DNA from: an uncultured Candidatus Obscuribacterales bacterium
Lineage (GTDB): Bacteria; Cyanobacteriota; Vampirovibrionia; Obscuribacterales; Obscuribacteraceae
Assembly: GCA_964478655.1 (NCBI GenBank)
Contig: CAYZJR010000038.1
Coordinates: 1-55,916, forward strand
Length of the DNA stretch: 55,916 nt
Direction: 5' to 3'
Every line of letters begins with the position of its first letter. Positions within the stretch are counted from its first letter, which is position 1. The notes under the pieces were generated by a model. The model was given only the letters and a program-made list of their open reading frames with translations. It did no database searches and was not told the origin of the DNA. Both the position numbers and the translations under genes were made by a program. Shown one piece after another: positions 23,499 through 54,325 of this stretch.

Positions 23499-24092
23499 AT
23501 GATGAAAGTCATTCGAATCGCAATCGGTCTCGGTAATCCCGAGCCGAGGTTTCAGAAGACGTTGCACAACGCGGGCTACGACACGCTCGACGCTTTCGCG
23601 GGGGACAACGGACTGAGTTTTGTGGAGCATCCTGAATGGAACGCGCTTGTGGCACGAGGAACAGTCAACGACGTTGACGTGGTCCTCGTGAAACCGCTTA
23701 CCGGAATGAACGAATCCGGTGCGACCGCCGCCAAAGTCTTCGAACACTTCGAAGCAGAGCGCGACACGCTCCCACAGTACTTGCTCGTGTACGATGACCT
23801 TGCCATGCCGTTTGGCAAGTTGCGCTTTCGCGACAGCGGAAGTGCCGCCGGTCATCGCGGGGTGCAATCCGTCATCGACGTCTGGCCAGCCACACGTCTT
23901 CTTCCGCGCCTGAAAGTCGGTATCGGACCCGATCCCGGCGGAGCGCGACGGTTCAACTACGTCACCGGCCCGCTCGGTGACGACTTGTACTCGCTCTTTC
24001 GAACCTCGATTGTCTTGGCTAAAGAAGCCTTCGATGTCTGGGTTCGAAGCGGTATGAGCGAGGCGATGAACCGCTTCAATGGCATGAAATAA
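23499..24092 (+). CDS. pth: peptidyl-tRNA hydrolase
   Basis: IGLGNPEPRFQKTLHNAGY, KPLTGMNESG, DDLAMPFGKLRFRDSGSAAGHRGVQSV, LKVGIGP are canonical Pth blocks. Confidence 0.85.
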   Translation: MMKVIRIAIGLGNPEPRFQKTLHNAGYDTLDAFAGDNGLSFVEHPEWNALVARGTVNDVDVVLVKPLTGMNESGATAAKVFEHFEAERDTLPQYLLVYDDLAMPFGKLRFRDSGSAAGHRGVQSVIDVWPATRLLPRLKVGIGPDPGGARRFNYVTGPLGDDLYSLFRTSIVLAKEAFDVWVRSGMSEAMNRFNGMK

Positions 24093-24217: not shown

Positions 24218-24274
24218 ATGGATTCCAGCGCCGACGGCGCTCCCGCCCTTACCATGGCGTCTGGTTGGTGGTAA
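24218..24274 (+). pseudogene. decayed 3' remnant of a third copy of the TadE-leader/GWW family
   Basis: Encodes ...ALTMASGWW*, matching the NMPEGWW* and NMPSGWW* C-termini of the two downstream paralogs, including the ggttggtggtaattc nucleotide tail. Confidence 0.4.
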
Positions 24275-24393
24275 TTCCGTGCGAACCTACCTCGAATGGG
24301 GGAGATCGTCTGCTTTGCTAGACAATCTTCGGACCCTCTTGATAAGATGAGATTGGACTAATGTTGCGTCGCTGCTGCGCAAAGGTGGGTTAC

Positions 24394-25458
24394 ATGACTC
24401 GTCGTCGTCGTAATTTCGGTTTTCAGATGTCGGAGTTTCCCGTCGTCTTATTCATTCTTTTTATCATGCTGTTTCCGTTAATCAATCTGCTTTGCTTAGC
24501 GTGCGGTGCATGCAGTGTTTGGCTAATCTCCTTCCAAACTGCATCTACTGCTGTCGAACAGAAGAGCTTTTCGGACTCTCTGACTGCAGCGGCAAATACC
24601 GCGACTGCAATCACAAATTCGGGACTCTCAAAATGGGTGAAACTCACGCCAGTGGGTGGTTACCAAGGAAAAGGAGTCAACTTGTTTGTTGAAAAGCTTA
24701 GCTTCAGGACCGGCAGTGGGCAATATTGGTTGTACGGTCCAAACGCCAGTGCTCCGCCGCCTGCCCAGTCGGCCGATTATATCTACAGTATCAAGTCTGA
24801 AGCTACATTCACTGTTGGTCCTTTCCTTTCAATGGCTTCTTGGCCATTTATCGGTGATGTTCCTGGGCTCGGTGTTCCTGCTTCGTTTACGATCACCACA
24901 GGAAAGGCAGTCGAGCAGCCAGATCACATCGTTGATGCCAACAACACTTTGCTGGCTTCAACCGGAACTGGAAGCAACGTGTCGGCGCAGCCTGGAGGCT
25001 GGAAATCGCCCAACGGAACAGGCGAGATGTGGACTCAAAACGGATCTCCGATTCTCTCATACACAGTCTGGGTGCCCGATTCTCCCGGTTCAACAAACGG
25101 CTACATGTTCAAAATCGATACCCAAGCCAACACTCAGTACTCCGGGCAATCGTGGCTAACCGGGCGTTACGTCAATAACTATCAGCCTTCCGATGGTGGC
25201 TACATCCTGACCGGCAATGAATTTACCTTTAACGGACAAAACGGATCGAACCAAACCATGGGCATCAATCCTGGGCAAAACGTGGATTTGCAGGGAATTC
25301 AGGAGTACTGCGAAGGCGCTACGGGGTCACTTTTGCAGCTCAGAAACAACATCACCAACGACACCACCATGTCTGCTTCCGCTAAAGCAGCAGCGATGGA
25401 TGCGGTCGCCCAGTATGAAACTTGGTTGCGAGCCAACATGCCAGAAGGTTGGTGGTAA
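24394..25458 (+). CDS. secreted Asn/Gly/Thr-rich protein with TadE-like class III (prepilin-type) leader; paralog 1
   Basis: MTRRRRNFG|FQMSEFPVVLFILFIMLFPLINL: short basic leader, Gly, Glu at +5, then hydrophobic helix (TadE/Flp-pseudopilin-like); ends MPEGWW. Confidence 0.6.
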   Translation: MTRRRRNFGFQMSEFPVVLFILFIMLFPLINLLCLACGACSVWLISFQTASTAVEQKSFSDSLTAAANTATAITNSGLSKWVKLTPVGGYQGKGVNLFVEKLSFRTGSGQYWLYGPNASAPPPAQSADYIYSIKSEATFTVGPFLSMASWPFIGDVPGLGVPASFTITTGKAVEQPDHIVDANNTLLASTGTGSNVSAQPGGWKSPNGTGEMWTQNGSPILSYTVWVPDSPGSTNGYMFKIDTQANTQYSGQSWLTGRYVNNYQPSDGGYILTGNEFTFNGQNGSNQTMGINPGQNVDLQGIQEYCEGATGSLLQLRNNITNDTTMSASAKAAAMDAVAQYETWLRANMPEGWW

Positions 25459-25667
25459 TTCGGATCTGACGACACGGATCGCATGACACCAGACATGATC
25501 GCATGACATGTCAATGCGTCCGCACTGTCGACGAAAGCCCGATCAACGGCTACTTTTCGCCTCCTCCCCCAGATGGGGGAGATCTGTCACATGCCCTTGG
25601 CAGGGTGAACAGTGATTGATAGGATGAAAGAGGGTTAATGTTGTGGCTTTCGTAGTTTTTTCGCAGG

Positions 25668-26768
25668 GTGGGTCGGGTCATGTCACGTAAACGGACCAGA
25701 AGAGGCTTTCAACTGTCTGAATTTCCAGTTGTCCTCTTTATCTTCTTTATCATGTTTTTTCCGCTGATCAATTTGCTTTGTTTGGGATGTGGAGCTTGCA
25801 GCGTGTGGCTGATTTCCTTCCAGACAGCAGCAACGGCAGTCGAGCAGCAAAGTTTTGCCGAGTCGCTCAATGCTGCAGCGAATCAGGCAAAAGCAATTAC
25901 ACAAACCGGCATTTCTAAATGGGTGAAACTCCAGCCGGTGGGAGGCTATCAAAACTCAGGCGTAAACCTGTTTGTTGAGAAGCTCAGTTTCAGAACCGGC
26001 AGCGGCCAGTATTGGCTCTACGGACCCAACGCGTCGGCACCTCCGCCAGCGCAAGCTGCAGACTACATCTACAGTGTTAGATCTGAAGCAAATTTCACAG
26101 TTGGCCCTTTCCTTTCGATGGCATCGTGGCCGTGGATCGGTGATATTCCTGGTCTCGGACAGCCAGCGGCAATCACCATCACTACTGGTAAAGCGGTGGA
26201 GCAACCCGATCACATAGTTGATGCCAACAACACGATGTTGGCCTCAAGTGGCTCAGGCTCTAACGTTTCAGCGCAGCCGGGTGGCTGGAAAGCTCCAAAC
26301 GGAACAGGAGAAATGTGGACCCAGGACGGCATGCCGATTCTATCGTACACTGTGTGGGTTCCAGACTTCCCAGGTTCGAGCACTGGTTACCTGTTCAAAA
26401 TCGACACACAGCAAAACAATTGGAGCGGAAGTAACCCGAACGTCAATTGGTCCGCGTCGTCGTGGATCACTGGGCGGTACGTGAGCAACTACCAAGACTC
26501 TCAAACTGGCTTTATCCTCACTGGCAACCAGTTTTCGTTCAACGATACAAATGGCGGAACGCAAACGATTGCCGTCAACCCTGGACAGAACGTTGATGTA
26601 CAGGGGATTCAAGAATATTGCGAAGGAGCCACTGCATCTCTTAATCAGCTGATTACCGCAGTCAATGACAATCCATCAATGTCTCCGGCAGCTAAAGCCG
26701 CAGCTCTCAACTCAATCGCTCAATACCAGTCATGGTTGCAAAACAACATGCCATCTGGCTGGTGGTAA
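25668..26768 (+). CDS. secreted Asn/Gly/Thr-rich protein with TadE-like class III leader; paralog 2
   Basis: About 60% identical to paralog 1 along the full length; MSRKRTRRG|FQLSEFPVVLFIFFIMFFPLINL; ends MPSGWW. Confidence 0.6.
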   Translation: MGRVMSRKRTRRGFQLSEFPVVLFIFFIMFFPLINLLCLGCGACSVWLISFQTAATAVEQQSFAESLNAAANQAKAITQTGISKWVKLQPVGGYQNSGVNLFVEKLSFRTGSGQYWLYGPNASAPPPAQAADYIYSVRSEANFTVGPFLSMASWPWIGDIPGLGQPAAITITTGKAVEQPDHIVDANNTMLASSGSGSNVSAQPGGWKAPNGTGEMWTQDGMPILSYTVWVPDFPGSSTGYLFKIDTQQNNWSGSNPNVNWSASSWITGRYVSNYQDSQTGFILTGNQFSFNDTNGGTQTIAVNPGQNVDVQGIQEYCEGATASLNQLITAVNDNPSMSPAAKAAALNSIAQYQSWLQNNMPSGWW

Positions 26769-26797: not shown

Positions 26798-26835
26798 AAG
26801 GCTTGCTTCGGCAAGCCTTTGTTGCTTTTGTCTTG
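26798..26835 (+). terminator. rho-independent terminator after paralog 2
   Basis: aaggcttgc-ttcg-gcaagcctt + tgttgcttttgtcttg. Confidence 0.6.
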
Positions 26836-26989: not shown

Positions 26990-27745
26990 CTACTTCAAGA
27001 TGAAGAAGAGCACTTTCTCTGCTGCGTCCTTGAGCTCGACCTTCTTGCAGTCGCTCACTTTCACCTTGGATTGATCCTGCGCCAAAACGCTGTCCGCGCC
27101 AGTGATGTGAGCCTTCGACTTGCCTCGAGCGACCACGGTCTTGCAGCCGGTGCACTCGACATAGCTGTTGTCGTTGGACGTTACCGACTCGACGTTCTTG
27201 GCTGTGACCTTGGCGAAGGTGTTGGCAGCAACGGACTTGGAGTCGTTTACCACGACCTCTGAGTCGCCAAACACTTCTACTGTTTCGCAACCATTGGCGG
27301 TGACGTTGGCCTTCAGATTGACCAGGAGCCGCTTGCAGTTTTCGACACGGTAGTAGCCCATGACCGCGGCGCCAATCTTGACTGTGCCCTCGTTCGAGAC
27401 CGACACAGCAAAGAGCGACTGGCGGCTCGGGGGCTCGATCGTGGTCTTGTCGTTGACCCTGATCGCGATCTTGCCGTCCTTCGACTGTACGTTGACTTCG
27501 CCGACGAACTGGAAAATGCGAGAGCCGTCGAGTTCGATGGTCTGGTTACGCACGCGGCGCACCTTATCGGTGGTCTCGTAGACGTCGGCTTCTTTGACAT
27601 TGAGAACAACTTTGCCGGTGCCGCTGATCTCGAGCTTCACAGCGTTGGCCGGCACAACCAGAGGTTGGGTCAGCCACGAGATGATTCCGATGACAGCAGC
27701 CAGGGCAATGCCCAGAATGACGATTGTTCGCCAGTTGGTATTCAT
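26990..27745 (-). CDS. membrane-anchored beta-rich protein (DUF2807 / adhesin-head-like repeats)
   Basis: N-terminal TM (MNTNWRTIVILGIALAAVIGII), then repetitive V-x-N/V-x-V beta-strand pattern; aaagga RBS. Confidence 0.5.
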   Translation of the reverse strand: MNTNWRTIVILGIALAAVIGIISWLTQPLVVPANAVKLEISGTGKVVLNVKEADVYETTDKVRRVRNQTIELDGSRIFQFVGEVNVQSKDGKIAIRVNDKTTIEPPSRQSLFAVSVSNEGTVKIGAAVMGYYRVENCKRLLVNLKANVTANGCETVEVFGDSEVVVNDSKSVAANTFAKVTAKNVESVTSNDNSYVECTGCKTVVARGKSKAHITGADSVLAQDQSKVKVSDCKKVELKDAAEKVLFFILK

Positions 27746-27782
27746 GTGTGATCCTTTGTGGAACAAGTGACTTGCCACCAGG

Positions 27783-28070
27783 CTAGGTGGCGATCAGATA
27801 CGTACCGTTCTCGATCAGCCCATCGGCTGCGAGTTGATTGAGGAGCGCGCCTGCGAGCCAACTTCCCGAACCGTCCGCCTTGAAGCGTTCGATTTTGGAG
27901 CGTTCGTACTCTCCGACTTTTCCGTCGATGACGAACTTTTTGACTCCGTCGCGGTTGAGTTCTTGATCTGCTGAGATCGAGAACTCATGCCCGAAATGCT
28001 CTTGAATGAGGGCGTCCACATCGTATTGGTCGACCTCGATTACTTCGTACTTCTTCGTGCTGAGTGCCAT
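27783..28070 (-). CDS. small hypothetical protein (95 aa)
   Basis: Intact ORF directly upstream of the DUF2807-like gene (4-bp gap), probably co-transcribed. Confidence 0.45.
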   Translation of the reverse strand: MALSTKKYEVIEVDQYDVDALIQEHFGHEFSISADQELNRDGVKKFVIDGKVGEYERSKIERFKADGSGSWLAGALLNQLAADGLIENGTYLIAT

Positions 28071-28133: not shown

Positions 28134-29498
28134 TTACTTCTTCGAGTCGTCGCCTTGCGCACCATCGCTGGTGGTGGCGATTTCCGCCACGGCGGGGACT
28201 GCCGCTGCCGGCTTGGCAGGCGGCTGGATGGTCATGAAGACCGGCAGGTGATCGCTGACGATGCTGTAGAAGTAGCTGTCTCGCTTCGTCTCCGGGAAGG
28301 CCGGAATCCAGCACGTGCTGATCGAGCCTTCGGGGAAGCCGCGAGCGAAGAAGCCGTCGAACTGACCGCCATCGGTCTTGTACCGGTACGACCAGCCACC
28401 ATTGGTGGTGGGCACCAGCTTCAGACCGGCTGCGACCAGAGGTTCGATCTCCGTGGTGGTCGCAAGCTGAATCGGGCAGTTGAAATCACCGCCGAGCAGA
28501 ACCGCACCCAGAGGCGCAGTCTCTTCCTTCGGATCGATGAGAACGGTACGTGGATTGACCTTGTCAGTGGTGGCACCACCGGCGGCGTCGGTTCCTGGCG
28601 TGGCGGCTGCCGGGGCGGAATCTCCGCTTGCAGTGCCGGGTTCGGTGCCGGTTGCAGGCACGCTTGCCGTCGTCACTTTGCGCGACTTGTACGGCGAAGT
28701 CGTCAGCTGCTTTGCCAGATCTTCGACCAGCATCTCGAACTGGTGCCGACGAATCGGGCGCGTTTCGTCCGGACCGCCCACGTTGCTCTTTCCGTGCCAG
28801 TCGAGTACGTCGAAAACGAAACCTGTGACGAGGTCCTTCACGCGCCGCTGAAGAGCGGGACGCAGCGTGACCTTATACTCCGGATGACCGGGCACTTCCA
28901 GAAGGTAGTCGTGGTAGTAGGGCGCATCGCCGAGCCACTGCAGCCGCGGGTGGAAGAGAATTCCGTTGGCCTGTTCGCGGTTGTTTCGGTGGCTCACGTT
29001 GAGCCCGTAGCCCGCTTTCTTGGCGATCACGCGCAATGCATCGACGTTGGTCTCTTGAACCATGACGATGTGTGCGCGCTTCACGATCTCCAAGATCGGG
29101 ACGTACATGGACTCGGCCTTGTCCACCTTGAGGTGGTGACCGTTGAAGGAGACGGCGACGAGCGGCCCATCGAAGCCGGCGAGCGGCTGCGAGCCAATCA
29201 TTGAACGCACGACTTCAGCGATCTGATCGGGAGTCGGAGGAGGAAGACGCTTTCGAGCGGTCGTCTTCGTTCCGGCTTCGCCTGTTCCTTCGGCTGAACT
29301 GGGCAAAGGTACACCGAGTGCCTTGTCCGCGATGGAGCGGATGGTGACGACGGTCTCGTTTGCCCAGTCGATTCGGTTTGCCGCCAGGCAAGCGTCGAGC
29401 AGCGTGATTTGCGGCTTCAACGATGCCAGGGCTGTTACGAGCAGATGCTTGCGCAGATCGGGCGCACCAGCATTTGCTGTTTCGGTTGTGTCTTTCAT
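28134..29498 (-). CDS. endonuclease/exonuclease/phosphatase (EEP) family hydrolase with low-complexity Thr/Ala/Pro insertion
   Basis: VMVQETN, GGDFN and SDHLPV are EEP catalytic motifs; start set at MKDTTE with aaagga RBS. Confidence 0.7.
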   Translation of the reverse strand: MKDTTETANAGAPDLRKHLLVTALASLKPQITLLDACLAANRIDWANETVVTIRSIADKALGVPLPSSAEGTGEAGTKTTARKRLPPPTPDQIAEVVRSMIGSQPLAGFDGPLVAVSFNGHHLKVDKAESMYVPILEIVKRAHIVMVQETNVDALRVIAKKAGYGLNVSHRNNREQANGILFHPRLQWLGDAPYYHDYLLEVPGHPEYKVTLRPALQRRVKDLVTGFVFDVLDWHGKSNVGGPDETRPIRRHQFEMLVEDLAKQLTTSPYKSRKVTTASVPATGTEPGTASGDSAPAAATPGTDAAGGATTDKVNPRTVLIDPKEETAPLGAVLLGGDFNCPIQLATTTEIEPLVAAGLKLVPTTNGGWSYRYKTDGGQFDGFFARGFPEGSISTCWIPAFPETKRDSYFYSIVSDHLPVFMTIQPPAKPAAAVPAVAEIATTSDGAQGDDSKK

Positions 29499-29574
29499 GC
29501 GGTTCCTTTTGTGCCTGACCCAGAAAGTTGGCTGAGAGCCGGGTGGCGCTTTCTGGCTGAGCGATTCGAATTGT

Positions 29575-30468
29575 TTACAAAACCTCGATTGCAACGGCGC
29601 CAGCGACGATCAAGGCGATGCCGAGCGCTCGCAAAAAACTGAGCCTTTCTTTGAGGAAGAACACAGCTGCCAGGTACATGACGAGCGGATATCCGGACGT
29701 CATGACGATGAGGTAATTGGCGTCAGAACCGGTGAGCGCGAAGATAAATCCGAGATTGCCGGCCGCCGCTAAAGCGGCAGACAACCACGAAAACCTCCAC
29801 GTCGCCCGATTCGACAGTCCGAGTGGCTGCTTCTTGAGCAGAAACCAACCCAGGGCTGCCACCACTAGCAGTGACTTCCAAATCGAGAGAGCCAGGTACG
29901 CTTCTAACGGTCTGGCGTAAGACAGCGACTGCTTCTCGAAGATACCCAGAAGGGCCCAAAACACTGTCGTGACAATGATGGCTGCAGCCACCAAAACGCG
30001 GTCACGTTTCGTCAGTTGTTTCTGTTCGGTCGATGCTGAGTATCCAATCGCAGCCACTCCGAGGCTGACCAGCACGGCTGCTATCACGCGACTTGCGGAG
30101 AGCGGCTCGTGCAAAATCAGCACTGCAAGAAGCTGGCTGACAATCGGATACCCAGCAGTAATGCCGAGCACGTAACTCGCCTGAGCCTTGCTCATGGCCC
30201 AGAAGTAGGCGACAAGCGCGATCAGCGCGGCGATGGCGTTGAGACCCTCCCAGAAGAGAACGCCGCGCGATAGCTGCCACTCGCCGTAGACGGCTGGCAG
30301 AGCGAAAAGTAGCCCTGCGGCCATCAGGATACTGAAGAAATGAAATGCCAAAAACACGCTTTTGGGTGAGCTCGATGCCACAGCTTTCTTGTCGAAGATG
30401 CCTGCAATGCCCCAACTCATAAGCGTTATCGTGATCAGCACATATGTCATCGGAGCCTCCAAAAACAC
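29575..30468 (-). CDS. EamA/DMT-family transporter (10 TM)
   Basis: Two tandem 5-TM EamA-like halves. Confidence 0.75.
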   Translation of the reverse strand: MFLEAPMTYVLITITLMSWGIAGIFDKKAVASSSPKSVFLAFHFFSILMAAGLLFALPAVYGEWQLSRGVLFWEGLNAIAALIALVAYFWAMSKAQASYVLGITAGYPIVSQLLAVLILHEPLSASRVIAAVLVSLGVAAIGYSASTEQKQLTKRDRVLVAAAIIVTTVFWALLGIFEKQSLSYARPLEAYLALSIWKSLLVVAALGWFLLKKQPLGLSNRATWRFSWLSAALAAAGNLGFIFALTGSDANYLIVMTSGYPLVMYLAAVFFLKERLSFLRALGIALIVAGAVAIEVL

Positions 30469-35347: not shown

Positions 35348-36796
35348 CTATTTCTCTGTTTGATAAGCAACCGACATAAAGCGCTTCTTGAACTGTTCGT
35401 ATGTAACTTTTTCCTTGTGTCCCCATGGATTATAGAGCGTCAAGGTTCCACCATTTGCACCATCGCGATCGAAGTCTAGGACGCTGTAGACGTGGTTTGT
35501 CACGTCCGAGATTCCGGTGCTTTTCCAGTTCTTTTGCCAAGCAACCACGGCAGTTTTCTCTTGCAAATCTTTGCCTACAGTCTCTTCAAGTTTTCTTTTC
35601 GTCATTCGATCCTCGTTGCCCAGGCTGGTCGGAGTCCAATGAAGCAGTGGAGTTGGGTTTGCGAGCCAGTCTTGATCGGAATCTTTTCCCGTCAGCAGGT
35701 GAATCAAATGTGCAAGGCGATGTCCTCCGCCATTGGCGCCTTCGGACGGAAGGTTGCCACCGCTCCAATTGGTGAAGATTTCCCGTCTAAACAGTTTCTT
35801 TTGGCAATATGTTCCATATGCTTTTTCGATGATCGGCGCCCATGTCCCTTTGTCGGCGGCCCCGAGAAACATTCCGCGTTCTGCTTCGGTTATTGGTTGA
35901 ACTGTGATTGGTTCGTCGGTGTCGCCTGGGAATGTAACAGTGAAGGAACCATCAGGGTTTTCGCAGATCATGTCTTTGATCGATTGGGGATTGGTCTGAG
36001 CGATCGCTGCGAGTGTTGAAACGAAATAGCAGTCACCCATTAAGCCTTGTTCGATGCCATAGATTCCAACATTTTTCTTTTCGGCATCCTCTCCTTCTCC
36101 AAACAACGACGATATGCCGATGGATTGGGCCTCGTGAGTGCGAGTAAGAACCAGATCAATTTCGTTGAGGAACTGATCGCTTTTGTCACCCATGTCGTTC
36201 TTTACGAAGTAAGTGAGTACATCGCTGACTTTGACTGGATCTTCGGGATCATCATTGTTTATGTAATATTGGAACAGTTTCTTTTCATCATCCGGAAGCT
36301 TCCCGGATTTGACCGCAGTTTCAAGTTCACCTTTCGAGAGAATGCCGTCTGCGTCTGTGTCGTGAGATGAAAGGGCCTTGAGAGAGTATGAGTTTTGTTC
36401 GATTTGTTTCTCATTGAAAAGTGCGCGAGTTTCTTTCAAATCGTCTTTGGTAATGCCTTTTGAATCGTTGTCTAGAAACCAGGTTGCATCGTCGTCCTGT
36501 TTTCGAATGTTCTTTCTGTTCCAATAGAGAGCCGCAATAGTCTGTGCGGTTTCGCCTTTGTTCTGCGGATCTTCGACGGCTTTTGCCAGTTCGTCATAGC
36601 GCAGCACACCGTCTTCATCTTTGTCTAGCGTGTCAAATAGCGCTTCTGCCTTGTCGAGAAACTCTGCCATGGATAGTCGATGTGGTTTGCCTTTTTGGTA
36701 CTCGGATGCATCAAATCCTGACGGTGGCTGAGCTTTGGAAGTAGAGCCGGAGTCAGTCGCATCTTGTGCGCCTCTGTGAAAACCCTGGAAAAACAT
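35348..36796 (-). CDS. calpain-like (C2 family) cysteine protease with two N-terminal EF-hand Ca-binding loops
   Basis: EF-hand loops DKDEDGVLRYDEL and DTDADGILSKGEL; calpain active-site blocks QGLMGDCYFVSTLAAIA (Cys) and NHVYSV...LYNPWG (His/Asn); start at MFFQ with gaggtg RBS. Confidence 0.7.
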   Translation of the reverse strand: MFFQGFHRGAQDATDSGSTSKAQPPSGFDASEYQKGKPHRLSMAEFLDKAEALFDTLDKDEDGVLRYDELAKAVEDPQNKGETAQTIAALYWNRKNIRKQDDDATWFLDNDSKGITKDDLKETRALFNEKQIEQNSYSLKALSSHDTDADGILSKGELETAVKSGKLPDDEKKLFQYYINNDDPEDPVKVSDVLTYFVKNDMGDKSDQFLNEIDLVLTRTHEAQSIGISSLFGEGEDAEKKNVGIYGIEQGLMGDCYFVSTLAAIAQTNPQSIKDMICENPDGSFTVTFPGDTDEPITVQPITEAERGMFLGAADKGTWAPIIEKAYGTYCQKKLFRREIFTNWSGGNLPSEGANGGGHRLAHLIHLLTGKDSDQDWLANPTPLLHWTPTSLGNEDRMTKRKLEETVGKDLQEKTAVVAWQKNWKSTGISDVTNHVYSVLDFDRDGANGGTLTLYNPWGHKEKVTYEQFKKRFMSVAYQTEK

Positions 36797-37512
36797 GCTT
36801 ACACCTCTGAGAAAAACGTCTGGGGTGTCGACTGAGTTGAGTTGGCGGGGTGTAGTGCGATTGTGGCGGTGCAATCTAACAATGACGTAACAGACTCGCA
36901 CTCCCGATTCTGCGCTTAAGGGGGCTGCTCCTAAGGCATACCTTGGGTTCGGGGCACTGAAATTATGCCCGTGGGTTATATCTTGACTTGGACAACCTAT
37001 GACTGTGGGTCATACCTTGGCATGTACCTCTTGCAAGCCGTTCCTTCAGCGGATTCTCGTACCGCAAGCAGCGAAGAGAGCGGTGCTTGGCAGCCATTCC
37101 TTGCCTAGCTTCGCTATAGGCTACTTGATTTTGGATGCTCGAAAGTTGGGTGCTTGAGAACTCCCATTGTTGTTTGATTTCACTGCCTTTCTGGAGTCTT
37201 GGCATGGCTAGTGCTTCTTGAAAACAAGAAAATGGCCCTTTAAAGGCCTCTAGAGAGAAAGATTTCAAGTTTCCTTAATTGAAAAGAGATGTGAAAGAGC
37301 CGTAACTTTCATAAGTTCCTTTCTAGTTTTTTTCTTTGGGCTTTAGACCTAACAAGCACTGTAATTGAGCGTTCAACGCGATAGCTTTCGATCACACGGA
37401 GTATTTAGCCGTGGCGGTTGATCTTCTCTGTTCGCGTTTGGTATCGCCTGCGGTGCTCTGCTAGCGGTTAAGTCCAAGTCTCATTCGCAAAAAACCTCAC
37501 AGGAGGTCAACA

Positions 37513-38562
37513 ATGGCACGTCATCGTGTTGTTGGGCCAGAGGATCCGAAGTCTCCTGCGATTCGTCGCCGGATGCTCGAAACCTGGCTCAAAACTATCC
37601 TGGGTTACCTCATGATGGGCGGTCTCGTCCTCGGTGCCCTGGCGGTCTTTAATTTCTCCTACGAATGGAAGCTTGGTTGGGGCCTGTTCTGGTACGTCGT
37701 GCCGATCGTGATGTGGTGGTTCAGTGCGCAGGTCGCGCTGAAGATGACCAAATCCGTCCCGGCTGACCCCAACATTCCTGAGCACAAGCGGCTCATCGAC
37801 ATCGTCGATCGTGTGTACGCCAAGAGCGGGCTGAAGTTCAAGCCGCCGGTGTACATCTCCGACAACCCGCTTCCCAACGCGTTCGCCACCGGCCCGATTC
37901 ACCGCAAAGCGGTCGTCGCTGCCACGAAGGGCTTGTTCCTTTGCGGCATGACCGACGATGAGATCGAGGCGGTGTTCGCGCACGAGCTTGCGCACGTCAA
38001 AAACTACGACGTGGGCATCAACTCTTTCCTGTCCATTCTGTCGATGATGTTCTTCATGATCGTGGACAGCGGTGTTCGCCTTCTCATGGGCAGCATCTCC
38101 ATCTTCAAGAAGACCTTCGGCATGAACCCGCAGAAGAAGGGCTTCTTCACCGGCATTCTGGAGTGGATCATCATGATGGTCATCTTCCAGATTACTGGGC
38201 GCATGACGCGTCTGGTGCAGTTCTTCGTTGTTCGTGCTCGTGAGTCCGGCGCTGATGCGACCGGTGCCATGATGACGAGTAAGCCGTGCGACCTGGCGGC
38301 TGCTCTAAAGAAGCTGGTCGCCTACGTCGAGAAGAACCGTCCGCCGAAGGGGCGCGAATCCGAACTCATGCGAGCGATTCGCCCGATGATGACGATCGAC
38401 CCGCTCTTCGACGCTTTGGCTGAGGAGCCGAAGCCGAAGACGCTGTGGCAGAAGATCGTCGCCTGGTGGAAGAGTCTGCAGCTCACGCACCCGCCGGTTC
38501 CCGAGCGCGTGAAGGAGCTGGAGCGCATGAACGGCGGCGCCTGCCCCGGTCCGACGAAGTAA
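37513..38562 (+). CDS. htpX: HtpX-like M48 zinc metalloprotease
   Basis: N-terminal TMs, FAHELAHVKNYD (HEXXH), later TM pair and GADATGAMM block; aggagg RBS. Confidence 0.8.
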   Translation: MARHRVVGPEDPKSPAIRRRMLETWLKTILGYLMMGGLVLGALAVFNFSYEWKLGWGLFWYVVPIVMWWFSAQVALKMTKSVPADPNIPEHKRLIDIVDRVYAKSGLKFKPPVYISDNPLPNAFATGPIHRKAVVAATKGLFLCGMTDDEIEAVFAHELAHVKNYDVGINSFLSILSMMFFMIVDSGVRLLMGSISIFKKTFGMNPQKKGFFTGILEWIIMMVIFQITGRMTRLVQFFVVRARESGADATGAMMTSKPCDLAAALKKLVAYVEKNRPPKGRESELMRAIRPMMTIDPLFDALAEEPKPKTLWQKIVAWWKSLQLTHPPVPERVKELERMNGGACPGPTK

Positions 38563-39948: not shown

Positions 39949-41772
39949 ATGGAGAACAAGTCAAAACGCAAGCTCATCACGTTTGGCCTTCTGGCTGTGG
40001 TGGCTGCCCTCGTTACGCTCATCTTCGCGACGGGCGATTTCAGTTTCTTTGGTGGCAAGGCCGTTTTGTCCGGCAACACGCCGGCGGCCGTCAACAACTC
40101 GACTCTCAACAAGCATGCCAACCCCGAAGACCGTCTGACCATCGTGGTCGGTCTCCAGCTGCGCAATGTTGACGAGCTCAACAAGCTCCTTGCGGAGCAG
40201 GCGAATCCGGCGTCGCCTCAGTATCGCCGTTACATCACTCCCGACCAGTTCGCGCAGCGGTATTCGCCGACGCACGCTGATGTCGACCAGGTTGTCGCCT
40301 TCCTCGGGAAGAACGGCATCCGGGTGGTTTCGGTTACCCCCAACCGCACGCTCATCCAGGCCGAGGGCACCGTCTCTCAGCTCGAGGCTGCGTTCGGCGT
40401 GACCATTAACGAGTACACGTGGACGTCTCCTGCCGGCGTGAAGAAGACCTACTTCTCCAACGCCCAGGATCCGAGCGTTCCGTCTAACCTCGCAGGCATC
40501 GTGCAGTCGGTGATTGGTCTCAACACCTTCGCCGAGTTCGAAAGCATGATGCGCCGTAGCCCGCAGCCGGCGCCGAAGGCGTTCGTGAGCGGCTACACGC
40601 CCCAGGATTTGGCTCAGGTGTACAACTACCCCAACGCCAACAACAAGAATGCCACCACGACTCTGTCGGGTAAGGGCGTCAAGATCGCCGTCGCCACTGC
40701 TGAGAACTACGACCAGAAGGACATGGACGAGTACTACAAGCAGTTCGGCATCAAGCGCACGGGCCAGGTGGTAAACATCTACGTCGGCGGCAACCCCAAC
40801 AAGGTAAACGGCGAAACCACTCTCGACCTGCAGATGGTCGCGGGCCAGGCTCCCGGTGCCGACATCCTGATGTACATGGGCAACGACCCGAAGTTCACGA
40901 CGTTCACGCTCGTGTTCAACCAGATCGTCACCGACAACAAGGCTGACATCATGTCAGTCTCCTGGGGTCTGTGCGAAGACGGTACGGGCAAGGCTCAGAT
41001 GCTGACGGAACAGGCCATCTTCAAGCAGGGTGCTGCTCAGGGCATTGCTATGTTCGCCGCTGCCGGCGACGACGGTGCCTACGACTGCCCGACGAAGAAG
41101 CCGATGCTGTCCGTGGACTACCCGTCTTCGGACCCGTACATCACCGCAGTTGGTGGCACGACGCTTTACGCGTCGGGCGGCAAGCGCACTTCGGAAGGCG
41201 CATGGACTGGCGGTGGCGGTGGTATCTCCGCTTACCACAAGCGTCCGACGTGGAACAACGGCAACGGTGTTCCTGCCGGCGACATGCGCATGAGCTCTGA
41301 CGTCTCGCTCGTCTCTGACCCGTGGACCGGCTATGCCATCTACGTGGAAGGGCAGTGGGGTGAGGTTGGTGGCACCAGCGCTGCGGCTCCGATGTGGGCG
41401 GCCCTGTGGGCGCTCTCCGTCGAGAACGCCGGCGGACGTCTCGGTCTCGCCAACGAGACCATCTATCGCATGGGCAACTCTGCCGACTACGGCAAGTTGT
41501 TCTACGACGTGACCAGTGGCAACAACGGCGATCACCGCGGACCTGGTTACAACACCGGCCCGAACTGGGATCACCCCACTGGCTGGGGCGCTCCGGATGG
41601 CACTGCTGTCGCCAACTGGATCAAGGCCGACGCGGCGAAGAATCCTCCGCCGACGTTCAGCCAGCCGGTGAAGACCAAGAAGGACGAGGACTCGACTTCG
41701 GTCGATACATCCAGTCCAGTGGCTCCGGTCGAAGCTCCTGCTGCGACTGAGCCGGCACCCGCGAAGAAGTAA
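39949..41772 (+). CDS. sedolisin/kumamolisin-like S53 serine peptidase with pro-domain
   Basis: N-terminal TM/signal, pro-kumamolisin activation region, SVSWG, GGTSAAAPMWAALWAL (S53 catalytic Ser block), C-terminal Pro/Ala tail. Confidence 0.8.
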   Translation: MENKSKRKLITFGLLAVVAALVTLIFATGDFSFFGGKAVLSGNTPAAVNNSTLNKHANPEDRLTIVVGLQLRNVDELNKLLAEQANPASPQYRRYITPDQFAQRYSPTHADVDQVVAFLGKNGIRVVSVTPNRTLIQAEGTVSQLEAAFGVTINEYTWTSPAGVKKTYFSNAQDPSVPSNLAGIVQSVIGLNTFAEFESMMRRSPQPAPKAFVSGYTPQDLAQVYNYPNANNKNATTTLSGKGVKIAVATAENYDQKDMDEYYKQFGIKRTGQVVNIYVGGNPNKVNGETTLDLQMVAGQAPGADILMYMGNDPKFTTFTLVFNQIVTDNKADIMSVSWGLCEDGTGKAQMLTEQAIFKQGAAQGIAMFAAAGDDGAYDCPTKKPMLSVDYPSSDPYITAVGGTTLYASGGKRTSEGAWTGGGGGISAYHKRPTWNNGNGVPAGDMRMSSDVSLVSDPWTGYAIYVEGQWGEVGGTSAAAPMWAALWALSVENAGGRLGLANETIYRMGNSADYGKLFYDVTSGNNGDHRGPGYNTGPNWDHPTGWGAPDGTAVANWIKADAAKNPPPTFSQPVKTKKDEDSTSVDTSSPVAPVEAPAATEPAPAKK

Positions 41773-44960: not shown

Positions 44961-46220
44961 TTGCTTGCAGTACGACCTACAACATCTTTTCTTATGAAAC
45001 AACTATTGGCATTGTGGCTGCCTTTGGCGGCTTGCTGCCTTGCCCTGGCTGCATGCAAGCCTCGGCAGGAGCGGACGCTTGTGGTGCAAGTTCTCAATAC
45101 GGAGCAGCGAGAGCTGACTCCGCTTGGACTGGTGCGCAAGGTATATGACTTTGAAGGGCACCTCGTCGAGCATCACTTTCCGTATCCGGACGGCGGTTAC
45201 GCGCATGTGATTTATCGAAGTGATGGAACAGTGGCGGCAACTCTCGAGGATTACCCGAGTCAGCCTGGCGCATTGGCGCCTGTTCGTAAGAGCGAGGCTG
45301 AGTTTGCAGAGGATGGAAAGACCGTGCTTTTGGGCAAGGCGTATCGCCTTGATGGCAGTCTGAGAATGGTTCGGCGCGCGTCACCGGACGGGCGCTGGAG
45401 CGACGAAGACTACCTCCCAAGCGGTCGGCAGGCGTTTAAATCGCAGCGAAACCCGGATGGTTCTTGGGAGATCACTTGCCTTCGCGTCGACGGCACCCGA
45501 GACTCAGTCGTGCTTGTGCGCAGGAGTAAAGTCGACAACGAGTCTTCGGAAGGTTCTGAACCCGAGCCGAAAGTGGTGTGGATCGACTGTTTCGATGCCG
45601 CCGGAACGGTTCGTCTTTGCCACCAAGCGTTTGCCGAAGAAGGCGAGACAATCGACCCTCTTCAGCCGCTTGCCGGTGGAACGGGCGCAATGAACGGCAG
45701 CAAGGAAGCCGGGCGTTTGGTATTCTTCTACGGCAAGGGCAGCATCGCGAGTCACTATCAGTGGTGGCGAGCAGGGCGAACCGACAATGCAGATGGCGAG
45801 GAGTTTACGCTTGAAATTGTCGGACAGTTCAAGAACACGGAGCTTGTTCGGCGCTTCTTTGTCGATGATCTTGGTGACGAGGTTTCAGTCACGAAGGTGG
45901 AACGGCAGGAAGAATTGGCTGAGTTTCCCAAAGTGTCGAGTTGGCCTGAAGACTCGGAGTCAGGGCTGCCAATTGAAACTTGGGTGGGGGGCAAGACTCG
46001 TTCGCTTTTGTTCGACGAGTTTTGCGAACTAAAAGACATGTCCGGCAAGCGACTCGCAACAGCAACTTCGCAAGAAAAAGAAACTGTAGACACGCGACTC
46101 TTCATGCGACCTCCGGGGTCGCTTTATCCTGTGCTAAATGAAGAGTTGGCGCAAGACGACGTCCAGTGGATTGGAGAGCAGGATTCTAAGAACCCTTGCC
46201 ACTGGTATCACAATTTGTGA
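44961..46220 (+). CDS. lipoprotein with MORN-variant repeats (paralogous architecture to 38698-39765)
   Basis: LPLAACCLALAACKP lipobox; RSDGTV, YRLDGSL, SPDGRWS, NPDGSWE repeats. Confidence 0.55.
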   Translation: MLAVRPTTSFLMKQLLALWLPLAACCLALAACKPRQERTLVVQVLNTEQRELTPLGLVRKVYDFEGHLVEHHFPYPDGGYAHVIYRSDGTVAATLEDYPSQPGALAPVRKSEAEFAEDGKTVLLGKAYRLDGSLRMVRRASPDGRWSDEDYLPSGRQAFKSQRNPDGSWEITCLRVDGTRDSVVLVRRSKVDNESSEGSEPEPKVVWIDCFDAAGTVRLCHQAFAEEGETIDPLQPLAGGTGAMNGSKEAGRLVFFYGKGSIASHYQWWRAGRTDNADGEEFTLEIVGQFKNTELVRRFFVDDLGDEVSVTKVERQEELAEFPKVSSWPEDSESGLPIETWVGGKTRSLLFDEFCELKDMSGKRLATATSQEKETVDTRLFMRPPGSLYPVLNEELAQDDVQWIGEQDSKNPCHWYHNL

Positions 46221-46237
46221 CCTCAACTAAACAGCTT

Positions 46238-47395
46238 ATGATATTCACAATTCTTTTCCAGCTGACCGATTTGCGTCTGACGGAGCCGCACTGGCTCTGG
46301 CTTGCGTTGGTTGCGCCGGCTCTCGTTATTTTGAGAAAACGTCTGCGCATTGCCTTTGCGCACACGTCGACTTCCATTCACAAAGCCACACGCAATCGCG
46401 ATTGGACCGGGGTGTTCGTCGCCGTCTTGCTGGTGGTTTCATGGGCATCGTTCTGCATCGCGCTGACGAAGCCTCGCCTCGTGCATCAGGAGATGCGGCG
46501 CACTCTCAATGCCCGCGACTTCGTGATCGGTATCGATCGCTCTGGTTCGATGTTTGCCTCGGACATCAAGAATCCGCAGCTTCGTCAGGAAATCGACGCT
46601 TTCGCCGAGGGGCTGGCCAAGCAGGAAAAGGCGATGCGCGAGGCGTACCCCAAGCTTTATCCGTATCCCCCGGATGCACCTCAAGCGACGGTCGCCGCCG
46701 ATCATGTGAGGCGGTTCGACTTGGCTCGCTATGCGGCGTTCAAGTTTCTCGGCAGTCGTCCCCAGGGTGATCGAGCGGCGCTCTTCACCTTCGACGACGA
46801 TGTTTATTGGGCGTGGCCACTGGGTTCTGACCTCAATGTCGTTTCGCGAAAGACTGAGGAGTTGTCGACGTCTAAGCAAGGCGGAGGCACTAACTTCGAA
46901 GGTCCGACGCAGAACAATCCGAGGCAAGGCGCCTTTCAAGCCACGATCAATCACCTGGAAAAGCTCGCGAAAGCCAAAACGCGAGTACTCATCTTCGTCT
47001 CCGACGGCGACGCCGGAATCAGCCCGGAGCGCCATCAAGCGCTTGTCGAGCAAATGAAGAGGGAGAATCAGGAGATTCACATCTTCGCGCTTGTTTGCGG
47101 CGCCAAGACACAGTTGGACAACGCAAGCACTCAATCGCTCCGCAAGCTGGTTGAAGCGGTGAATCCGCAAAACTGGCACGACAGCAAAGGCGAAAAGGTC
47201 GATGCCGTGCTGTGGGCCGGTGATGGTGAAGCGATGAAGAGCGCCTTCGCGCGCATCAACGAACTCGAGAAGTCGGCCGTAGAGCTTGAACCGATCGAGG
47301 GTTTCAAGGACGTGACGTTTCAATTCATTCTGCTTGGGGCACTCAGCCTTGCGGGGTTGCTCGTCGCGTGCACACTACTTAACGAGAACTTCTAA
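46238..47395 (+). CDS. BatA-like von Willebrand factor A domain membrane protein
   Basis: N-terminal TM pair, VIGIDRSGSM MIDAS motif, C-terminal TM. Confidence 0.65.
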   Translation: MIFTILFQLTDLRLTEPHWLWLALVAPALVILRKRLRIAFAHTSTSIHKATRNRDWTGVFVAVLLVVSWASFCIALTKPRLVHQEMRRTLNARDFVIGIDRSGSMFASDIKNPQLRQEIDAFAEGLAKQEKAMREAYPKLYPYPPDAPQATVAADHVRRFDLARYAAFKFLGSRPQGDRAALFTFDDDVYWAWPLGSDLNVVSRKTEELSTSKQGGGTNFEGPTQNNPRQGAFQATINHLEKLAKAKTRVLIFVSDGDAGISPERHQALVEQMKRENQEIHIFALVCGAKTQLDNASTQSLRKLVEAVNPQNWHDSKGEKVDAVLWAGDGEAMKSAFARINELEKSAVELEPIEGFKDVTFQFILLGALSLAGLLVACTLLNENF

Positions 47396-47401
47396 TGTCT
47401 T

Positions 47402-48124
47402 ATGAAAATCATTCGTTATGTTGGTTTGGCTGTCGCAGTCCTCTCTCTGGACGGCGTCATCGCCTACCGCCTGCATGAAGGCAGTGCCACCGAATATGAC
47501 GCCATGGCGTTTGTCGGTGTGCTTGCCGCTCTTCTGTTTCTACTTGCGCTCAAGACGCTGAGGAATCGGCTTGCGCGTGCCACGGCGCTTGTTTCCGGAT
47601 TGGCGCTCGCCTTGTCCGGTGCGGCGCTTTTGACGCAGACCGCTCCACAAGTCGGCGTTTACAATAACGCCATTGTTTCGATGCAGGAGGGCGACCTTCT
47701 GCAAGCCATAAAGCTCTTCGATGAGAGCGTGACGATTCACAAGAAGCTGGCCGAACGCCCGCTGCTTGCTCGTTTGATCTCGCCGAAAGTGCGAAATGAC
47801 TTTGAGGCACTGGCGTTGTTTCACAAGGCAAACTGTCTCGTTAAGCTCAACAAAGGCAAAGAGGCAGTCGATGCTTTGAAGAAGTCACTGCAGTCAAACC
47901 CCGGCAACTGCTATGAAGGGCTTGATCTGTCCGCCGCGCAACGACGTTATCTCGAAGCGCTGGAGGCTCAGTCCAATCTGGAGAAGCTCTTCAAGAGCGG
48001 GCAGGGTGGTGGACACGCAACTGGTCCCGGAGGCGGGCAAGGGCAGCCTCAGCCGGGTCAACAACCCGGGCGCGAACGTCAGCCGCAGCCGGGTGCGGGC
48101 AAACAAGAGCGCGACGCGCTGTAA
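47402..48124 (+). CDS. BatC-like TM + TPR protein with Gly/Gln/Pro-rich tail
   Basis: N-terminal TMs, TPR repeats, low-complexity C-terminus. Confidence 0.55.
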   Translation: MKIIRYVGLAVAVLSLDGVIAYRLHEGSATEYDAMAFVGVLAALLFLLALKTLRNRLARATALVSGLALALSGAALLTQTAPQVGVYNNAIVSMQEGDLLQAIKLFDESVTIHKKLAERPLLARLISPKVRNDFEALALFHKANCLVKLNKGKEAVDALKKSLQSNPGNCYEGLDLSAAQRRYLEALEAQSNLEKLFKSGQGGGHATGPGGGQGQPQPGQQPGRERQPQPGAGKQERDAL

Positions 48125-48141
48125 CCTCAACTTCTCATTGT

Positions 48142-49329
48142 ATGTTTCAAATACTTCAAGACATACACTTCGAGCGACCAGGTTTTGTCATCTGGTCGCC
48201 GCTAGTGGTTTTGGCCGTGTTCGCACTCGGCTTCATCGCGCACCGCATTCGGTGTGCTGTCAGAAACAGCTACGCAAGCGACGCGCTGCTTTCTCGCACA
48301 ACGCGACTGCCGAAGCCGATATCTCATTGGCTTTCGGTGATCGGGTGGCAGTCCGCAGCTTTCTTTGCCTGCGTCGGACTCTCCGGGCCGTTCCAACCAA
48401 ATAGACCCATCACTCTGCCTGAGGGCAGTTTGCATGTTGTGGCGGTGTTCGATGTGTCGTTAAGCATGGCTTGCGAAGATTACCGCTTCGTCTTGCCGAC
48501 TCCTGATGGTGCGCCGCCCTTGGGTCCTTGGGGCAGTCGTTTGCAGATGGCAAAGCGAACGTTTGTCGACCAGGTGTTCAAGACGATTCCCGGCAACAAG
48601 GTTGGGCTCGTCACGTACACTGGTGATGGCTACCCGCAAGCGCCGCTTTGCCAGGACTATGCGACACTGAAGTACATCATGACCGACACCGGTTGGATGG
48701 GCATCAACAGCGCCCCGGGCAGCGGCTCTGACTATGTCGAGGGACTTAAGTGTGCACTGGACACTTTGCGGCGAGACTTTGACCCTGGCAAAAGGCAAGT
48801 AATCATGCTGTTTTCGGACGGCGGCTTGCCTGACTTCAAATCTGCTGACGATAAAGCGCATTGGCAGGAGGACCTTCAGAAAACTGTCGCGGAGCTAGAT
48901 GCACTGCGGCAGCAGAGTGGAGGGAACTTGACTGTGGTTGTCGTCGGAGTCGGAGACACGCAACCGCAGATGGTGCCGGTTTATGACCCGCGCACGCTCC
49001 AGCGCGCTGATTGGCACCCGATCGGTAAGCCCGAGAAATCTCAGACCGCCCTCGACGAGGATGTGTTGAAAGACCTCGCTGCACAGACGAAGGGCGTCTA
49101 TGTCTGGCTGCCGACTGATGCCGACTCGGCGAAGGTTCCTGTGGATTGGGTAAAGGCAGTGGGTGGAACCAAAGAGTCCGAAGGCAAGTTGTCCCTTGCC
49201 TGTTATCCGCTTGCGGCGACTATGTTGCTGTTCGCGGTGCTTCTTGCTAGAGGTCTGGTTAGCCGCCGCGACAGTGTGCGGCGAGTCACGCTGAAAGCCT
49301 CGTTTCTAAATGAACAAACTGGTCGCTAA
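48142..49329 (+). CDS. BatB-like vWA domain membrane protein
   Basis: TMs, VAVFDVSLSM MIDAS, C-terminal TM. Confidence 0.65.
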   Translation: MFQILQDIHFERPGFVIWSPLVVLAVFALGFIAHRIRCAVRNSYASDALLSRTTRLPKPISHWLSVIGWQSAAFFACVGLSGPFQPNRPITLPEGSLHVVAVFDVSLSMACEDYRFVLPTPDGAPPLGPWGSRLQMAKRTFVDQVFKTIPGNKVGLVTYTGDGYPQAPLCQDYATLKYIMTDTGWMGINSAPGSGSDYVEGLKCALDTLRRDFDPGKRQVIMLFSDGGLPDFKSADDKAHWQEDLQKTVAELDALRQQSGGNLTVVVVGVGDTQPQMVPVYDPRTLQRADWHPIGKPEKSQTALDEDVLKDLAAQTKGVYVWLPTDADSAKVPVDWVKAVGGTKESEGKLSLACYPLAATMLLFAVLLARGLVSRRDSVRRVTLKASFLNEQTGR

Positions 49330-49348
49330 CTTCTAACTTCTCAGACAC

Positions 49349-50395: not shown

Positions 50396-50418
50396 TTTGG
50401 TCTACAACCTCAAATACT

Positions 50419-51408: not shown

Positions 51409-51438
51409 GTTGTTCCAGCCGAATTAACCATTGAGCCT

Positions 51439-54320: not shown

Positions 54321-54325
54321 CGCTT

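Follow-up and report, generated by a model that had tools for sequence, protein, structure and literature searches.

Divergent TadE-type N-termini on a tandem pair of modular proteins in an uncultured Obscuribacterales bacterium: candidate minor pilins

Contig CAYZJR010000038.1 of assembly GCA_964478655.1, from an uncultured Candidatus Obscuribacterales bacterium, carries two tandem paralogous genes, here called A and B, whose products resemble pilins at their beginning and end in large domains without a name. The locus raises the question of what such proteins do with no pilus machinery beside them. We analyzed the whole 55,916-nucleotide stretch (the window), the two genes and their relatives, and we find that the first ~58 residues of this protein family appear to be specifically TadE-type and strongly diverged. 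We favour reading A and B as modular minor pilins of a divergent, lineage-specific TadE type, whose binding module would be presented on a type IV filament, and give this interpretation a probability of roughly 45%. The initial annotation of this locus, which had proposed secreted adhesins or pilus-tip proteins, is partly supported.

The observation of tandem paralogs is confirmed, with corrections. The list of open reading frames (ORFs) and their translations place A and B one behind the other in the same orientation. The length of 365 residues first given for each protein fits the longest ORFs, 24361-25458 for A (365 residues) and 25668-26768 for B (366 residues, from a GTG start), and not the likely proteins, which have 354 residues in A (24394..25458, +) and 362 in B (25680..26768, +). 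We take the ATG codons at 24394 and 25680 as the likely starts because they stand at homologous positions and because a Shine-Dalgarno-like element (AAGGTGGG/AGGGTGGG) common to both genes lies 4-7 nt upstream of each. Identity between the two proteins had been put at about 60%; full-length BLASTP gives 74%, with one 8-residue indel across the alignment. The shared C-terminal MP(E/S)GWW had been read correctly, as MPEGWW in A and MPSGWW in B. In public assemblies, protein A has an exact match in P0003/P0011, and protein B is 100% identical to P0001.

Both proteins belong to a family without a curated description. No Pfam or NCBIfam model matched A or B, no model in either library covers the conserved N-terminal part (the N-module), NCBIfam gave scattered single weak matches only among 140 relatives, and none of the sources consulted offered a functional name. 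A word-index search of 5.8 billion proteins returned eight relatives, seven of them full length (52-100% identity) and one covering the N-terminal ~190 residues only. An exhaustive hidden Markov model (HMM) search started from the alignment of these eight found 560 cluster representatives at E<=1e-3 and 172 at E<=1e-30, with nearly all matches confined to profile positions ~4-200, that is, to the N-module; an HMM of this domain matches A at E 7e-73 and B at E 3e-73. A second word-index search, started from an alignment of 140 sequences, listed at least 10 proteins and contributed little more. Scanning one genome per species yielded six loci, four from Candidatus Obscuribacterales, one from Candidatus Melainabacteria and one unclassified, with 32-36% identity over residues 1 to ~200. 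The suggestion of a new family was well founded in the sense that some 560 cluster representatives carry an N-module for which neither library has a model. As all labelled genome matches are to Obscuribacterales or Melainabacteria, the family appears to be both uncurated and lineage-restricted.

The case for a pilin-like function begins at the N-terminus. Each protein opens with an Arg/Lys-rich putative leader that ends at a candidate cleavage Gly, namely MTRRRRNFG in A (24394..24420, +), followed by FQMSEF, and MSRKRTRRG in B (25680..25706, +), followed by FQLSEF. The signature originally described, G↓FQ(M/L)SEFPVVLFI...FPLINL (the arrow marks the candidate cleavage) with Glu at +5 from the Gly, is present in both, with Phe at +6 and then ~33 hydrophobic residues that include FPLINL. 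When all 799 stop-to-stop ORFs of at least 40 residues were searched by regular expression and HMM, A and B were the only ones in the window with a leader of this kind; further family members, Flp-like pilins and classical prepilin motifs were found nowhere else in it. Of 157 family members, 145 retain the aligned Glu; the Gly column is conserved at 86% and Pro28 at 97%, a level of conservation unexpected for a generic membrane anchor.

That this leader is TadE-like held in a controlled profile-profile test and failed in the direct search with the PF07811 (TadE) HMM, in which A and B have no match even at E<=10. In the 140 relatives, PF07811 gave weak matches to five, over its first ~20 profile positions and with a best E of 3.7e-4; two viewed singly, P0016 (13.7 bits) and P0121 (11.6 bits), both score under the gathering cut-off of 22.9 bits. 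PF13400 matched the N-terminus of three of the 140. The TadE comparison set consisted of 88 proteins with a precomputed PF07811 assignment, fetched by a consensus-like query, 72 of which were aligned. Against these 72, hhalign placed the family alignment at 94.5% probability (E 8e-8, score 51.5) over 58 columns with a single one-residue gap. It paired R-G with R-G, E-F with E-F, the family's FPLI(N/D)L-x-G with GII(E/D)FG of TadE, and the family's Q-x-A-x-x-A with AAREGAR of TadE. Reversed alignments reached 5.8-7.0%, and 20 column-shuffled TadE alignments at most 1.3%. Compared with the N-termini of the Escherichia coli pseudopilins GspG-K of the type II secretion system (T2SS), a profile of five sequences, the family obtained 1.2% (score 17.9, 17 columns), the same level as TadE itself against Gsp. 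Signals of the N_methyl/IPR012902 type (PF07963, TIGR02532) had no match in A or B in Pfam or NCBIfam. Given a 94.5% match with clean controls and only 1.2% for Gsp, these comparisons argue that the first ~58 residues of the family are of TadE type specifically, at considerable evolutionary distance.

Predicted structure is consistent with this assignment. The N-module spans residues 10 to ~190 in A (24421..24963, +) and in B (25707..26249, +) and comprises a long hydrophobic to amphipathic helix with FPLINL, a second helix and beta strands. For residues ~10-185 of B, AlphaFold2 with a 140-sequence alignment reached a predicted local distance difference test (pLDDT) above 90; in this model a helix of 41 residues (14-54) precedes a shorter one (59-74), and four to five strands within residues 84-172 make up a sheet. 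Minor pilins of the TadE/F/G type combine a hydrophobic alpha1N helix with a beta-stranded domain (PMC12075869), and the order of secondary structure in our model, helix then sheet, agrees with this pilin layout. Neither sequence nor fold searches of the PDB returned a TadE-type or pilin match for the N-module.

Beyond the N-module, the family diversifies. In A, the C-terminal module covers residues ~200-354 (24991..25455, +), is rich in Asn, Gly, Thr, Ser and Trp, and would form a beta-sandwich followed by a two-helix hairpin, judging from the model of B, before ending in MPEGWW. The corresponding module of B, residues ~205-362 (26292..26765, +), is eight residues longer than that of A in a predicted loop at ~246-253 and ends in MPSGWW. 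For this module of B, an alignment of eight sequences gave the better AlphaFold model, with about eight strands (210-311) and two helices (316-356) at pLDDT 55-91. The C-modules of the window had no Pfam match and resembled no solved fold, and a sequence profile search of the PDB gave nothing significant (top E 0.022, an antibody chain). We then removed the N-module from 159 family proteins and clustered what remained. In 76 of them the tail is one module of ~169 residues, 18 carry the ~166-residue module of the window type, and 39 are essentially tailless; the other tails form no cluster, and many of these singletons are rich in Gly and Pro. A terminal Gly plus aromatic residue is found in several distant members of the window-type cluster too.

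The tail shared by 76 proteins is PA-IL-like. Residues 253-341 of P0032 match the PA-IL model PF07828 at 25.7 bits against a cut-off of 22.5, and 8 of 140 family members match this model. One further member carries a tail with a GH114 glycoside hydrolase match of 203 bits. The window C-module cannot itself be assigned to PA-IL, since hhalign against the PA-IL-type cluster gave 0.3% and Pfam gave no match. The earlier description of this region as lectin-like is therefore borne out only indirectly, in that about half of the relatives have a PA-IL-like module in the same position, and not by the window module, which is unrelated to PA-IL. Across the family, a conserved N-module is combined with exchangeable, independently recognisable C-modules, as in the modular pilins known from the classical class (PMC8179133) and from TadG/KilN (PMC12075869).

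If A and B are minor pilins, their life cycle can be outlined. The basic leader would hold the N-terminus in the cytoplasm while the long hydrophobic helix enters the inner membrane. An aspartic (A24-family) prepilin peptidase encoded elsewhere would then cleave after Gly9 and leave Glu at +5. Through its helix, the ~180-residue N-module would be built into a Tad-like or other type IV filament, at the base or the tip, and the beta-sandwich/helical C-terminal module would be exposed outside the cell as a ligand-binding head, probably one that binds glycans or surfaces. Two old paralogs, each with its own promoter, may provide alternative heads or a two-subunit tip. Cleavage, incorporation into a filament, surface display and ligand binding are all inferences.

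Such an outline places the machinery outside the window. Inside it, as initially reported, no tad, pil or T2SS genes occur: comparison of ~47 ORFs of the window with Pfam revealed none, nor a prepilin peptidase (peptidase_A24). This absence is not decisive because in Myxococcus paralogous minor-pilin "tip" clusters lie at several genomic sites (PMC12075869). Two other Melainabacteria orders are reported to have type IV pilus genes (PMC4451040), and pilD has been named for Gastranaerophilales, another Melainabacteria order (PMC5877343).

Several observations weigh against the minor-pilin interpretation. The TadE homology extends over ~58 largely hydrophobic residues, and an ordinary HMM made from the 72 TadE proteins also fails to match A or B. 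Counted from the nearest upstream Gly, the spacing to the Glu varies within the family (+4 in 55 members, +5 in 53 and +6 in 14); in the PF07811 set, a figure biased by the consensus-like query used for fetching, the Glu stands at +5 in 61 of 72. In ~10 distinct neighbourhoods of family members we found no flp, tadF/G, ATPase, secretin or peptidase gene. Instead, short members of ~190-270 residues, consisting of the N-module alone or with a Gly/Pro-rich tail, lie directly downstream of, and co-oriented with, an orthologous gene for a ~900-residue Ser/Thr kinase with a transmembrane (TM) segment and TPR repeats (7148-9916 in L005/L009, 7215-9947 in L008, 7055-9862 in L011, 7059-9866 in L012 and 1-1449 in L010). 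The kinases from these Obscuribacterales genomes share 38-41% mutual identity, the L010 match being partial. Their adjacency to the short members could be a functional link, and this synteny, together with the absence of pilus neighbours, argues against a simple "tad locus" picture and leaves room for a role outside a filament.

The strongest competitor takes up exactly these points. The N-terminus would be an uncleaved signal-anchor, with the N-terminus inside and the C-terminus outside, that holds the N-module and its cargo in the periplasm or at the envelope. No filament would be involved, and the protein might serve the Ser/Thr kinase as a partner or ligand. A basic N-terminus followed by a long hydrophobic helix agrees with the positive-inside rule, and the variable Gly-to-Glu spacing, the lack of pilus genes beside any member examined, the lack of a pilin match among solved folds and the position of short members next to the kinase-TM-TPR gene in L005/L009, L008, L011 and L012 (partially in L010) are all expected of it. 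An anchor leaves unexplained, however, why Gly, Glu and Phe are near-invariant, why FPLI(N/D)L is kept and why the profile match is specific to TadE. PA-IL-like and GH114 cargo would also fit better outside the outer membrane of what is presumably a diderm. On balance we consider this explanation unlikely, and take it seriously nonetheless.

Alternatively, the N-terminus may serve as a pilin-like export handle, processed by PilD in the manner of a pseudopilin; a T2SS-like or type IVa machine, and not a Tad system, would then carry or release the protein. The classical type IV pilin motif is G↓FTLxE, and the G↓F-x-(L/M)-x-E of A and B suits it too. The reports of type IV pilus genes and pilD in other Melainabacteria point in the same direction, whereas we found no report of Tad systems there, and the GH114 enzyme carried by one member suggests delivery over adhesion. 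The profile scores speak for a TadE-type rather than a T2SS-type N-terminus (51.5 versus 17.9, the latter at 1.2% and from a T2SS profile of five sequences), and the N_methyl/IPR012902-type signal found no match in Pfam or NCBIfam. A handle of this kind seems rather improbable to us.

A bolder proposal, which we regard as a long shot, is that the N-module is an envelope display or sensing module specific to Melainabacteria, with a TadE-like helix, that works with the syntenic Ser/Thr kinase-TPR protein and is not a filament subunit. Glycans of prey, host or matrix would then be recognised by its exchangeable heads (the PA-IL-like lectins, GH114 and the beta-sandwich), serving as receptors or effectors, and the non-photosynthetic sister group of cyanobacteria would possess a surface-recognition system of a new kind. 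Finally, an ordinary Sec signal peptide cut by signal peptidase I, which would make the proteins secreted or periplasmic, is very improbable: a positively charged n-region does precede a hydrophobic stretch, but this stretch of ~33 residues is modelled as one 40-residue helix that is continuous with the folded module at pLDDT above 90, far exceeds a Sec h-region, is among the best conserved parts of the family whereas signal peptides drift, and is followed by no A-x-A-type cleavage site by eye.

Between A and B, synonymous sites have reached saturation (pS 0.79) and nonsynonymous differences are few (pN 0.15), from which we conclude that the duplication is old and that both copies are under purifying selection, the latter a point we count in favour of the minor-pilin interpretation. 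By window along the gene, pN is 0.06-0.19 in the N-module and 0.20-0.30 in the C-module, the most divergent part. Saturation of synonymous sites along the whole gene leads us to reject recent duplication and gene conversion. The pth-linked pair occurs in three other assemblies, one of which has a much more divergent first copy (58-63%). In L016 (107-2768), the paralog nearer to pth (P0007) has the opposite orientation to that in the window, so that the two copies point away from each other. The paralog locus is structurally dynamic in this respect. Upstream of A, at 24253..24277 (+), lies what looks like the relic 3' end of another family gene, the last ~7 codons (TMASGWW) and a stop, which indicates that a further copy was lost. 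A 15-mer within it, GGTTGGTGGTAATTC, is identical to the end of gene A; it occurs at these two sites only, with 0 expected by chance, and the similarity does not extend beyond this region. Such identity despite the saturation between A and B suggests a more recent partial duplication or a deletion at the locus.

The two genes also share upstream elements. The initial annotation held that the duplication included about 100 bp of upstream sequence; elements are indeed shared, and the saturated synonymous sites show that they are not simply the residue of a recent duplication. The 12-mer box ATGGGGGAGATC has exactly two copies in the 55.9 kb, at 24296-24307 and 25573-25584, in equivalent positions before A and B (chance expectation 0.18; two matches were reached in 1 of 100 shuffles). 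The copy upstream of A (24296..24307, +) ends 11 nt before the -35 hexamer of a promoter-like site (24319..24348, +) that consists of TAGACA, an 18-nt spacer and TAAGAT with a TG extension. At the equivalent position before B, the promoter-like site (25597..25625, +) has TTGGCA, 17 nt and TAGGAT, again with a TG extension. L015, from another species, keeps the same blocks before both of its copies, namely the GGGGGAGATC box, the -35/-10 pair with TG extension, TAATGTT and the Shine-Dalgarno-like element, and the -10 block TGATA(A/G)GATGA is kept in all four upstream regions of the two species. Because A and B are saturated at synonymous sites and the blocks are also found in L015, we do not regard them as neutral leftovers; they are most likely constrained promoter or regulatory elements.

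We considered whether the ATGGGGGAGATC box is merely one arm of a terminator hairpin. It is so in L015; the B copy fits weakly, and the A copy does not. Between the paralogs of L015 (11112-11150), a perfect 12-bp inverted repeat gives a 17-bp stem, AGATCTCCCCC-ATCC-GGGGGAGATCT (z -6.4), which is followed by a T-rich run and shares the GGGGGAGATC box with the window as one arm; this palindrome may be a terminator, a protein-binding site or both. In the box region upstream of B (25564..25584, +), GGGGGAG pairs with CTCCCCC in a 7-bp hairpin of -15.1 kcal/mol that is not exceptional (z -0.84), and upstream of A, where the complementary 5' arm is degenerate, there is no stable hairpin. The comparison points to the box itself, not the hairpin, as the conserved entity. 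A structured RNA in the leaders was also considered and rejected, since an Rfam search of the locus gave a sub-threshold chance match only.

The spacer between A and B contains, as described before, a 12-bp direct repeat and a palindrome: GATCGCATGACA stands at 25477-25488 and 25497-25508, the two copies lying 20 nt apart (25477..25508, +), and GACATGTC overlaps the second. The ~95 bp of spacer (25462-25560) with both repeats and GACATGTC are absent upstream of A and from both L015 regions. After B, a hairpin resembling an intrinsic terminator (26798..26819, +) has a 9-bp stem and a T-rich tail (-19.4 kcal/mol, z -4.4).

On the chromosome, the pair sits between a peptidyl-tRNA hydrolase gene (23499-24092) and convergent genes without Pfam matches. 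These convergent genes, 26990-27778 (-), 27783-28070 (-) and 28134-29594 (-), keep their synteny across related assemblies; Pfam assigns no family to the first two and, for the third, gives a sub-threshold Exo_endo_phos match only. In a 262-residue ORF of this block, a hydrophobic segment at the N-terminus is accompanied by repetitive, beta-rich sequence. Elsewhere in the window, Pfam identifies, among others, TPR proteins, an SPFH protein, a Na/H exchanger, EamA, several peptidases and a MoxR/VWA/DUF58 operon. The last, at 44961-52566, is of the Bat/MoxR type and runs through an unknown protein, VWA, TPR, VWA, an AAA_3 MoxR ATPase, DUF58 and a second unknown protein, after which come two tandem S41 C-terminal-processing peptidases with PDZ domains (52608-55810). 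A calpain-like cysteine peptidase (Peptidase_C2) at 35348-36901 (-) is joined to an EF-hand, a combination uncommon in bacteria, and is kept in related assemblies. At 39949-41772 (+), a sedolisin/kumamolisin-type peptidase (Pro-kuma_activ and Peptidase_S8 matches) adjoins an M48 peptidase (37513-38562). The window as a whole is notably rich in peptidases and TPR proteins.

If the minor-pilin interpretation is right, Obscuribacterales and their relatives have a large family of TadE-type modular minor pilins that is invisible to current HMM libraries, with hundreds of clusters at 50% identity and heads that include lectins and a glycoside hydrolase. The view of Tad pili and modular pilins as filaments with an adaptable tip would then reach the non-photosynthetic sister lineage of cyanobacteria. 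This lineage has hardly been cultured and includes predators, and to our knowledge its cell-surface biology is essentially unknown. The family could become a curated model, so that its proteins are no longer unnamed, and the C-modules are candidates for new carbohydrate-binding folds.

Three known systems invite comparison. The PA-IL (LecA)-like lectin domain (PF07828) occupies the equivalent C-terminal position in the family's largest subgroup (76 of 159), whereas the window C-module is another, unclassified module. With TadE/TadF/TadG, the minor pilins of Tad (type IVc) systems (PF07811/PF13400), the family shares the basic leader, the Gly and the Glu-Phe (with four residues between them in A and B), a polar or acidic residue ~17 positions past the Glu within the hydrophobic helix, the Ala-rich amphipathic stretch that follows, and the helix-then-beta-sheet module as modelled here. 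TadG, and KilN of the KilL/M/N tip complexes of Myxococcus, also carry an extra C-terminal module of unknown fold, as do the large members of the family (PMC12075869). The family differs in remaining below the PF07811 threshold, in the globular part of its N-module, for which there is no curated model, and in its variable Gly-to-Glu spacing; its genes stand singly or in same-type tandem pairs rather than in E/F/G triplets, and none of the loci examined has flp or machinery genes beside them.

In design, the family parallels modular type IV pilins, such as PilB with a vWA module and PilC with a lectin module in Streptococcus sanguinis, and CofB (PMC8179133). In these, as in the family described here, a small N-terminal pilin-type module carries an exchangeable grafted module, lectins and enzymes included (PMC8179133). 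Modular type IV pilins differ in having the classical N_methyl (IPR012902) signal, which is undetected in the A/B family, in pilin modules that match solved folds, where the N-module of the family matches none, and in being encoded in pil loci. Read as minor pilins, A, B and their relatives extend the recognised modular minor pilin design and are not a new type of system.

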